25,610 nucleotides of DNA from a virus (lineage: Duplodnaviria > Heunggongvirae > Uroviricota > Caudoviricetes): the IMG/VR virus record IMGVR_UViG_2718217884_000005, positions 1 through 25,610 of that record; one strand, given 5' to 3'. A program made the position numbers and the translations under genes. Under the pieces are notes generated by a model. It searched no databases, had not been told where the DNA came from, and was given only the letters and a program-made list of their open reading frames with translations. This document shows positions 11,661 to 12,670 of the stretch, one piece after another. Numbering within the stretch: position 1 is the first letter of the stretch; each line of letters opens with the position of its first letter.

Positions 11661-12113
11661 TTAGTGACGCGGGTCTGTTATTATGCGAGAAGGGTTTCCG
11701 TATAAAACAAGGACCTTACTTCCTTGAGTAAATAACGGATCTTTGCCTTGAACAATGGTCATTAAATTCCCATTCTCAGTTTCGACAACATATTCCATGC
11801 CTGTTTGTTTTGTTGCTGAAGATTCGATTGCTGCCCCGGCAATACCACCAATGACTGCACCACCAACGGCACCAACGATATTAGAACGAACTCCCCCACC
11901 AAGCGCAGAACCAGCGGTTGCCCCCACGGCAGCCCCAGCAGTCCCGCCTAACGCGGAAGTCCCACTGATATCAACCCCCCTGGCACTAATAACTGTACCA
12001 GCGATAGTTCGATTAACCATGCCCACAGAGCCAACAGAATAACTATTTGGCGATATATTTTGTGCGCATCCAACCAACACTAAGAGTGGAGCAATTACGA
12101 ATAATCGCTTCAT
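11661..12113 (-). CDS. SlyB/Pcp-like glycine-zipper outer-membrane lipoprotein
   Basis: 150 aa; signal peptide with lipobox LVGC; long Gly/Ala zipper (GGTAGAAVGATAGSALGGG...GAVGGAVIGGIAGAA) as in SlyB; AT-rich. Confidence 0.7.
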   Translation of the reverse strand: MKRLFVIAPLLVLVGCAQNISPNSYSVGSVGMVNRTIAGTVISARGVDISGTSALGGTAGAAVGATAGSALGGGVRSNIVGAVGGAVIGGIAGAAIESSATKQTGMEYVVETENGNLMTIVQGKDPLFTQGSKVLVLYGNPSRIITDPRH

Positions 12114-12670
12114 TTAGCTACCCTAACAGGAAACATTGGACGAGAAAGATCAACACTTTCTAATGCTTGCAAGAACTGCGTTATGTTGTTTTGCACCGCG
12201 CGATTAACAGATTCGCGTGCTCGAACAATACCGTAGAATGCGTAACTGGCTGGAACAGTACCGGTAGACTCAATATCCTGCGTATATATAATATCACCAT
12301 TCGCACGGTTGATTATTTCATACCTTGCAATTGCTTTAGTTGTCATTGAAACACCAAAAGCAGGAACGTCAAGAGCCAACACTTTAACATTTAAGCTAAC
12401 CGTATTTGGTGAACTATCACGAAAAATAGTCATTCGGTCGAGTGCTTCCTGCAAAGATTCACGCCAAATTGGAGTTATAGCCTCCATACCAGCAGTGATA
12501 TCCCCTTTCTGCTCATCTGGACGAGCAAGTGATACCGTTAATGACTTAATTTCAGCATCTATTTTTTTCTGGCTAACTCCCACGTTAGGTGTTGAAAAAT
12601 TCAATGGTGGCACACTAGCGCAACCTGTTAAAGAACCAATAATCATGGCTAATAATATTATCTTCTTCAT
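12110..12670 (-). CDS. lipoprotein of unknown function, co-operonic with the SlyB-like gene
   Basis: 186 aa; signal peptide and lipobox LTGC; stop overlaps the start of the downstream lipoprotein gene; AT-rich. Confidence 0.65.
   Translation of the reverse strand: MKKIILLAMIIGSLTGCASVPPLNFSTPNVGVSQKKIDAEIKSLTVSLARPDEQKGDITAGMEAITPIWRESLQEALDRMTIFRDSSPNTVSLNVKVLALDVPAFGVSMTTKAIARYEIINRANGDIIYTQDIESTGTVPASYAFYGIVRARESVNRAVQNNITQFLQALESVDLSRPMFPVRVAK

Follow-up and report, generated by a model that had tools for sequence, protein, structure and literature searches.

Background

Among the small glycine-zipper lipoproteins of the bacterial outer membrane, those of the SlyB type have recently been proposed to protect this membrane by walling off patches of lipid and protein. 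Under stress SlyB reportedly forms oligomers in the outer membrane that surround lipid and outer-membrane proteins, YfgH is apparently similar, and both are reported to stabilise the outer membrane during stress (10.64898/2025.12.22.696046). SlyB genes borne on megaplasmids have been found to be highly expressed (10.1101/2025.09.30.679422). In TraT, an LptE-like core is joined to two outer-membrane helices and the protein forms a lipid-filled decameric ring (PMC12658005). Here we describe a pair of lipoprotein genes, termed lipoA and lipoB, in a stretch of 25,610 nucleotides of Caudoviricetes DNA (IMG/VR record IMGVR_UViG_2718217884_000005, positions 1 to 25,610; henceforth the window, to which all coordinates refer), which is a decayed lambdoid (lambda-like) Escherichia coli prophage integrated at tRNA-Thr(cgt). 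By its profile and predicted fold LipoB is a SlyB homologue, LipoA is modelled as a lipoprotein with an LptE/PqiC-type fold, and the two genes travel together between bacteria and phages. We judge the case for and against to be about evenly balanced for the reading that the two proteins constitute a heteromeric module, assembled on a SlyB-type ring, which remodels or reinforces the outer membrane and is carried by phages as a moron.

Two overlapping lipoprotein genes under purifying selection

The first-pass annotation of the window recorded two minus-strand genes with the lipoboxes LTGC and LVGC, coupled through an ATGA overlap, and each of these elements lies exactly where it had been placed. 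The features of the pair are as follows:

12110-12670, minus strand: lipoA, a 186-amino-acid lipoprotein precursor with lipobox LTGC and Cys17; LptE/PqiC/PelC-like alpha/beta fold, uncurated family
11661-12113, minus strand: lipoB, a 150-amino-acid lipoprotein precursor with lipobox LVGC and Cys16; full-length SlyB homologue
12110-12113, minus strand: ATGA overlap of the lipoA stop codon (TGA) and the lipoB start codon (ATG), read from the sequence
12128-12142, minus strand: C-terminal tail motif of LipoA, R177-P-M-F-P181, candidate LipoB-docking motif
11814-11963, minus strand: glycine-zipper two-helix hairpin of LipoB, residues ~51-100, from the model helices and sub-threshold Pfam matches

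The N-terminus of the LipoA precursor is MKKIILLAMIIGSLTG-C17 and that of the LipoB precursor is MKRLFVIAPLLVLVG-C16. In both proteins the residue following the lipobox cysteine is an alanine, and there is no aspartate that would act as an inner-membrane retention signal. Under the Lol sorting rule of enterobacteria an alanine in this position predicts transfer to the outer membrane, and hence both LipoA and LipoB are predicted to be located there.

Homology searches at E<=1e-3 gathered 512 clusters for LipoA and 581 for LipoB, and in both resulting alignments the lipobox cysteine is invariant, along with many other positions. Among the copies of the pair from E. coli, Klebsiella oxytoca and Edaphovirga, synonymous differences are saturated (0.73-0.85 per site) and non-synonymous differences amount to 0.10-0.24 per site. 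Both genes are thus evidently under strong purifying selection, and by the same token they are evidently real genes and not chance open reading frames (ORFs).

LipoB is a co-linear homologue of SlyB

Structures of the outer-membrane lipoprotein SlyB (PDB 7OJF/7OJG) are reportedly those of Janssens et al. 2024. A profile of LipoB constructed from 60 homologues aligned with E. coli SlyB (PDB 7ojf) with an e-value of 7.5e-14, positions 2-148 of the former corresponding to 3-153 of the latter, and a BLASTP comparison gave 33% identity to a SlyB sequence that had been rebuilt from the profile alignment, with its terminal residues added. A Foldseek search of PDB with the LipoB model returned SlyB as the sole significant match (E 3.3e-8, probability 1.0). 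The AlphaFold2 (AF2) monomer consists of a strand, two long helices (H55-71 and H75-100) and a small beta domain, with the Gly/Ala-rich region of residues ~51-100 modelled as a helical hairpin. Cys16 is invariant in the 60 homologues, and the glycines at positions 56, 60, 64, 68, 81, 84, 85 and 93 are likewise invariant in the alignment. Domains of the PF05433/PF13488 type are present in many LipoB homologues according to precomputed annotation, and LipoB matches PHROG 13877. LipoB thus displays the features by which the SlyB class is recognised, namely a lipobox cysteine, a two-helix Gly/Ala-zipper hairpin and co-linearity along its full length, including the beta flanks. The first-pass annotation had called the protein SlyB-like from its Gly/Ala zipper, and the full-length profile match together with the single fold match make a stronger case than that description implied. 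By these comparisons LipoB is a genuine, co-linear homologue or paralogue of SlyB, and it forms a new subfamily within the known SlyB-type family.

LipoA has an LptE/PqiC-type fold and has been misnamed

LipoA had been described at the outset as having no recognisable family, and as far as Pfam and NCBIfam are concerned this holds: neither Pfam (E<=1), NCBIfam nor PADLOC gave a match beyond the signal peptide, and the one match that was obtained, to PHROG 12521, is to a group of unknown function. No match at E<=1 was seen to PF04390 (LptE) or PF03886 (ABC_trans_aux). A Pfam scan of 86 distant homologues revealed no common family, with only one of them matching PF04390 (LptE), at an e-value of 0.018. 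Two LipoA profiles retrieved no match when run against PDB sequences, and a Foldseek comparison of LipoA with viral structure models found none that was meaningful. The family is nonetheless large, comprising 914 clusters at 50% identity (E<=1e-3).

The structure model of LipoA is a confident one, with a predicted local distance difference test (pLDDT) value of 86.7 and a predicted template-modelling (pTM) score of 0.80, and it displays the two-layer alpha/beta sandwich characteristic of LptE/PqiC-like lipoprotein domains. Its best structural matches are the PqiC family, PelC, LptE, CsgG and TraT, all of them outer-membrane lipoproteins that assemble into rings under this membrane or bind lipids or glycolipids; the similarity to TraT is well below that to PqiC, PelC and LptE. 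Going by this model, LipoA is an LptE/PqiC-fold lipoprotein of an uncurated family.

Database records of LipoA (e.g. WP_000720581.1) carry the widely spread names 'UDP-N-acetylglucosamine acyltransferase' and 'YajG family lipoprotein'. These names are given by NCBI, UniRef and recent RefSeq entries, and a full-length hhalign comparison with YajG, using a YajG profile of low diversity, reached a probability of 91%. That score came from the signal peptides, and the similarity vanished once they were trimmed (E 0.18, probability 0.3%). PF03923 (YajG) was matched neither by LipoA (E<=1) nor by any of the 86 distant homologues (E<=0.1). For the acyltransferase no hexapeptide-repeat or acyltransferase match was found in Pfam or NCBIfam, and a lipoprotein signal peptide, followed here by an alpha/beta fold, does not fit a cytoplasmic enzyme. 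We therefore regard it as hardly credible that either name is correct, and the analysis corrects two misleading designations of LipoA. Fusions of LipoA to LipoB were also sought in five longer LipoA-containing proteins (P0244, P0249, P0250, P0297 and P0323) and none was present; a scan of eight longer LipoA-containing proteins revealed no informative Pfam domain.

A two-gene cassette linked through the LipoA tail

A survey of species-representative genomes identified 80 loci with LipoA at 44-84% identity. The hosts include Klebsiella, Serratia, Edaphovirga, Xanthomonas, Stenotrophomonas, Luteimonas, Bordetella, Cupriavidus, Comamonadaceae and many alpha-proteobacteria, besides a few loci labelled as other phyla, mostly in metagenome-assembled genomes, for which the assignments were taken as labelled. 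At 67 of the 80 loci, spread across the alpha-, beta- and gamma-proteobacteria and a few other phyla as labelled, lipoB is the next gene after lipoA on the same strand, with an estimated gap of -12 to +63 nt, and the distance matrices of the two proteins are correlated (r 0.82, Mantel p 0.001). Clustering of the neighbours in the 80 loci uncovered no third conserved gene, yielding only antisense artefacts and genus-level synteny. The first-pass suggestion of a two-gene operon is in keeping with this adjacency, tight spacing and correlated divergence across loci, which together mark the pair as a conserved operon-like unit.

The solo version of lipoA, lacking lipoB, was observed in Photorhabdus, Xenorhabdus, Budvicia, Pseudomonas and one beta-proteobacterium, with many of these copies in prophages. 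In siphovirus tail clusters it lies between K-like and I-like genes (L126) or before the tape measure gene (L132 and L063). L063 is from Xenorhabdus, L126 and L132 are viral contigs, and the solo LipoA proteins at these three loci are without the PMFP tail described below. This distribution suggests a role for LipoA by itself that is relevant to phages.

Paired LipoA proteins are typified by a C-terminal tail of the pattern D-x-x-[KR]-P-M-F-P, in which M179, F180 and P181 are invariant among the paired homologues (alignment A1). Of the 67 paired LipoA proteins 65 carry a [KR]P[ML]FP tail, as against 0 of 13 solo proteins (Fisher p 3e-13), the two paired exceptions reading RPIFS and RPLFS; the viral contigs obey the same rule. 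On a neighbour-joining tree of the LipoA core, constructed without the tail, the paired or solo state changes at least four times, and the association of the tail with lipoB is thus not a single inherited event. This suggests that the tail contacts LipoB and may dock onto it.

These observations bear directly on a reading in which LipoA and LipoB are merely co-transcribed and act independently, LipoB being an additional SlyB-type stress protein and LipoA a separate binder of lipid, lipopolysaccharide (LPS) or polysaccharide, for example as an accessory of a lipid-transport or secretion pathway, with no complex between them. Such independence would accommodate the solo lipoA genes of at least four lineages and the fact that the closest folds, those of the PqiC family, LptE and PelC, use partners other than SlyB. 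It would leave unexplained the fact that the two genes are near-obligate neighbours at close spacing and diverge in a correlated manner, the absence of lipoB-type genes without lipoA from viral contigs (lipoA accompanies the lipoB-type gene in all 33 of them), the loss of the tail motif exactly where lipoB is lost and the absence of conserved transporter or secretion genes in the vicinity. On this balance we consider independent action unlikely.

Mobility and repeated capture by temperate phages

The chromosomal settings of the pair are diverse. Housekeeping genes flank it in Lysobacter and in a metagenome contig, in K. oxytoca it lies in an island with umuDC, in Edaphovirga it is adjoined by an integrase element and in Bordetella by mobile-element debris. 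In E. coli it is an accessory trait, being present in 279 of 5426 complete genomes (~5%), always at >=99% identity. In IMG/VR, 42 viral contigs carry lipoA, covering several host classes of guanine-cytosine (GC) content and several insertion points. The cassette occupies at least five different slots in temperate phages, among them the interval between the tape measure gene and gpM (L112), a position beside a CI-like repressor (L115) and one after the terminase (L117).

In the window the cassette is flanked on one side by O, P and a ren remnant and on the other by ybcN/ninB, ninE, ybcO, rusA and Q. The same ren-ninB slot holds it in the att-lambda prophage of strain WCHEC020031 (L001) and in the complete phage PhiR30_1; the slot is thus filled in prophages at no fewer than two chromosomal sites, tRNA-Thr here and att-lambda in L001. 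The DNA of the cassette is AT-rich, with 34-47% GC against ~51% in the flanks. The position of the cassette between conserved phage genes, the variation of its insertion site and its atypical composition identify it as a phage moron (cargo) in the ren-ninB slot. From these comparisons the pair emerges as a self-contained, horizontally mobile two-gene cassette. The first-pass annotation had also raised the prospect of clear orthology to a housekeeping lipoprotein pair. In support of this, several copies are chromosomal and flanked by housekeeping genes; against it, the pair is accessory in E. coli and has repeatedly been captured by phages.

Its carriage by phages invites the interpretation that the pair, when expressed from a prophage, masks or sequesters a receptor or obstructs the surface, thereby blocking phages, colicins or conjugation in the manner of a two-chain TraT, Cor or Llp. 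The repeated capture by temperate phages at typical moron sites, including a tail-gene cluster and the immunity region, is consistent with such a blocker, as is the presence of most solo lipoA genes in prophages. The rings of SlyB, which can enclose outer-membrane proteins, offer a conceivable route to receptor sequestration (10.64898/2025.12.22.696046), and TraT, a single ring-forming chain, has both an LptE-like core and two outer-membrane helices (PMC12658005). Nevertheless, neither protein matches Cor, Llp, Bor, TraT or the PADLOC defence models, and the similarity of LipoA to TraT falls well short of its matches to PqiC, PelC and LptE. An identity of 45-84% is maintained across hosts, from three proteobacterial classes, with different receptors, under purifying selection and not diversification, and many copies lie among housekeeping genes with no mobile-element genes nearby. 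Such very high conservation across hosts, together with the copies outside phages, argues against a receptor-specific blocker. We therefore hold this interpretation to be improbable as well, while placing it ahead of independent action.

A possible envelope-remodelling module

In the reading that we favour, a heteromeric outer-membrane module, LipoB would by its homology to SlyB embed its helical glycine-zipper hairpin in the outer membrane and assemble into oligomeric rings that enclose patches of lipid or outer-membrane proteins. LipoA, as an LptE/PqiC-fold lipoprotein, would be tethered to the outer membrane's inner leaflet and would dock on LipoB through its C-terminal [KR]PMFP tail, serving as a periplasmic cap, a scaffold or a specificity subunit. 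Lipoproteins of the LipoA fold class form rings or plugs under the outer membrane and have anionic glycolipids as ligands. Overall, the carrier cell would have its outer membrane remodelled or reinforced, and for a lysogen this would be a case of lysogenic conversion. With conservation so high across proteobacterial classes, the target is more likely to be a conserved envelope component than a host-specific receptor; it would probably be one shared throughout the proteobacteria, such as lipid A, phospholipid or the core biogenesis machinery. That temperate phages have captured the pair time and again implies a plausible advantage for lysogens. The first-pass annotation had proposed a receptor-masking or envelope-stabilising system, and its second half fits the homology to SlyB, while its first half finds no direct support, there being no similarity to Cor, Llp, Bor or the PADLOC models.

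A more specific variant would join the two interpretations in a heteromeric ring, in which LptE-fold subunits, held by their PMFP tails, would form a ring capping or lining a SlyB-type helical palisade, as a two-chain analogue of TraT that temperate phages would deploy for broad-spectrum surface exclusion or receptor sequestration against phages, colicins and conjugation. We regard this variant as doubtful, and rank it below both surface exclusion and independent action.

The DNA surrounding the cassette contains two candidate regulatory features:

12700-12727, minus strand: promoter-like site GTGATA, 16 nt spacer, TATAAT, from a consensus scan; candidate only
11590-11622, minus strand: 12-bp stem-loop, 39 nt past the lipoB stop codon; possibly a terminator or stabiliser at the end of the cassette; weak U tract

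The promoter-like site, in a stretch of 34% GC ~30 nt upstream of the start codon of lipoA, has a perfect TATAAT. The segment 11560-11665 of the minus strand (106 nt), which includes the stem-loop, folds with a minimum free energy of -36.7 kcal/mol (z -6.5 versus shuffles).

A number of points weigh against the heteromeric module. The putative physical contact between LipoA and LipoB is deduced from genomic co-occurrence and the tail motif, and in several lineages, often in prophages, LipoA is found with no LipoB, indicating that it has a function of its own. The confidence of the LipoB monomer model is only moderate (pLDDT 75.6), and its matches to PF05433 and PF13488 are sub-threshold, at 21.1 bits against a gathering score of 24.2. 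Sigma-70-like sites in the region are not above the shuffled expectation, making the promoter call weak, and the upstream DNA of lipoA has no conserved element among the enterobacterial copies. PhoPQ-dependent stress induction is a property of E. coli slyB and not of the fold, and no PhoP box was found in the promoter region (~12671-12900) upstream of lipoA; the nearest matches, each with 2 mismatches, are inside the lipoA coding sequence (12629-12645) or >400 nt upstream, and across the whole window such matches occur at chance expectation. With neither a PhoP box nor a conserved upstream element, SlyB-like stress regulation is not indicated for the cassette. The stem-loop is without a clear U tract, and hence the terminator call is also weak and its role uncertain. 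Finally, literature searches by accession, phage name and concept returned nothing on the LipoA or LipoB proteins.

As far as we found, the lipoA-lipoB cassette, its mobility and its tail motif have no prior description, although megaplasmid SlyB genes had already been noted (10.1101/2025.09.30.679422). The cassette supplies a natural SlyB paralogue whose dedicated partner lipoprotein co-evolves with it and bears a candidate docking motif, and it makes partner-assisted assembly directly testable. Its movement between bacterial classes and its repeated capture by phages suggest a portable envelope trait, which might concern barrier strength, vesiculation or exclusion. LipoA belongs to an uncurated family of known fold. 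The pair offers a well-defined, testable lead in an active area, though it is not surprising in kind.

The prophage surroundings

Three further features of the window define the prophage setting:

22989-24152: integrase
24167-24242: tRNA-Thr(cgt), the prophage integration site
8753-9070: holin of the lysis cassette

A role of the pair in the lytic cycle, whether as a spanin-like lysis accessory or as a virion or assembly factor, might be read from its shared orientation with the early-right operon O-P-ren-nin-Q and, in L112, with the tail genes. It lies outside the lysis cassette with its holin, it has no inner-membrane spanin partner, the insertion site differs between phages and most homologues occur in non-phage chromosomal contexts, all of which make such a role very improbable.

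The integration site adjoins a gene of the aldehyde-dehydrogenase family resembling proA (window 22989-25610), and the far left end (window 1-3225) is CP4-6-like, encoding a YfjS/YafY lipoprotein, an antirestriction protein, RadC and the toxin CbtA. Close to the cassette, ren is split by a 1.3 kb insertion (13366-14658) carrying a plus-strand gene (13504-14253) for a 249-amino-acid beta-barrel protein (PF13505, Opacity/OmpA-like). The co-linear prophages L001 and PhiR30_1 lack this insertion, which represents a second, independent envelope moron; because of this absence the beta-barrel gene is not part of the lipoprotein unit and was ruled out as a partner of the cassette. Upstream of lipoA, on the opposite strand, is a 68-amino-acid ORF with two hydrophobic segments and no family match (12912-13118, plus strand). 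PhiR30_1 encodes a 63-amino-acid hypothetical protein in the ren-lipoA interval in like orientation, the likeness being by position only.

Directly after the cI-like repressor (17309-18058), in the usual rexAB-type position, is a plus-strand gene (18125-18988) for a 287-amino-acid DUF7946/DUF7947 protein with a weak PADLOC match to PDC-S42 (E 1.5e-4). At the same spot L001 has a HipA-family kinase and a DUF3037 protein, and given this difference in content the position looks like a variable defence or immunity slot. Among the tail-fibre remnants, a low-GC region (4142-7601) holds an AraC-type regulator (4142-4894), an IS5-type transposase (5273-6184) and an Acyl_transf_3 membrane acyltransferase (6537-7601), the last possibly acting in O-antigen or LPS acetylation. 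These genes are further cargo in the decayed late region.

Comparison with known systems

SlyB and LipoB share the lipobox, an N-terminal strand region, the glycine-zipper hairpin and the C-terminal beta domain, in the same order and over about the same length. They differ in that SlyB is a core chromosomal gene, whereas LipoB is an accessory, mobile and tightly conserved subfamily. Unlike SlyB, LipoB is almost always encoded directly after the gene of a partner lipoprotein; to our knowledge E. coli SlyB is not encoded beside any such gene. The cassette further differs from E. coli slyB in having no PhoP box upstream, and LipoB in scoring below the Pfam gathering thresholds. YfgH, OsmB and YiaD belong to the same broad class as LipoB, being small glycine-zipper outer-membrane lipoproteins proposed as stress stabilisers. 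No specific sequence relation to the pair was seen, the sole NCBIfam trace being to YiaD at an e-value of 0.074, and, unlike LipoB, none is described with an LptE-fold partner.

On the side of LipoA, the PqiC or ABC-transport auxiliary family (XCC0632, PDB 2IQI; PqiC, 8Q2C) shows just 8-10% identity, with no PF03886 match. No pqiAB or mce genes are located near lipoA. LipoA likewise has no sequence membership in LptE or PelC, and the vicinity encodes no LptD or PelB. None of the transport partners LptD, PqiAB and PelB is thus present near lipoA, the only conserved neighbour being lipoB.

Cor, Llp and Bor resemble the pair in being prophage-encoded outer-membrane lipoproteins at moron positions, but they are much smaller single proteins, specific to phage and receptor, whereas the pair is widespread in bacterial chromosomes. 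Searches of Pfam, PHROG and PADLOC place neither protein in the Cor/Llp or Bor/Iss families. TraT, the surface-exclusion lipoprotein of the F plasmid (PDB 9FS5/9E2V), is like the pair a lipoprotein borne on a mobile element. The hallmark of TraT, a single chain in which two outer-membrane helices and a beta-hairpin ring accompany an LptE-like core, is not seen in the pair; where TraT carries its two building blocks on one chain, LipoA and LipoB supply both on two.

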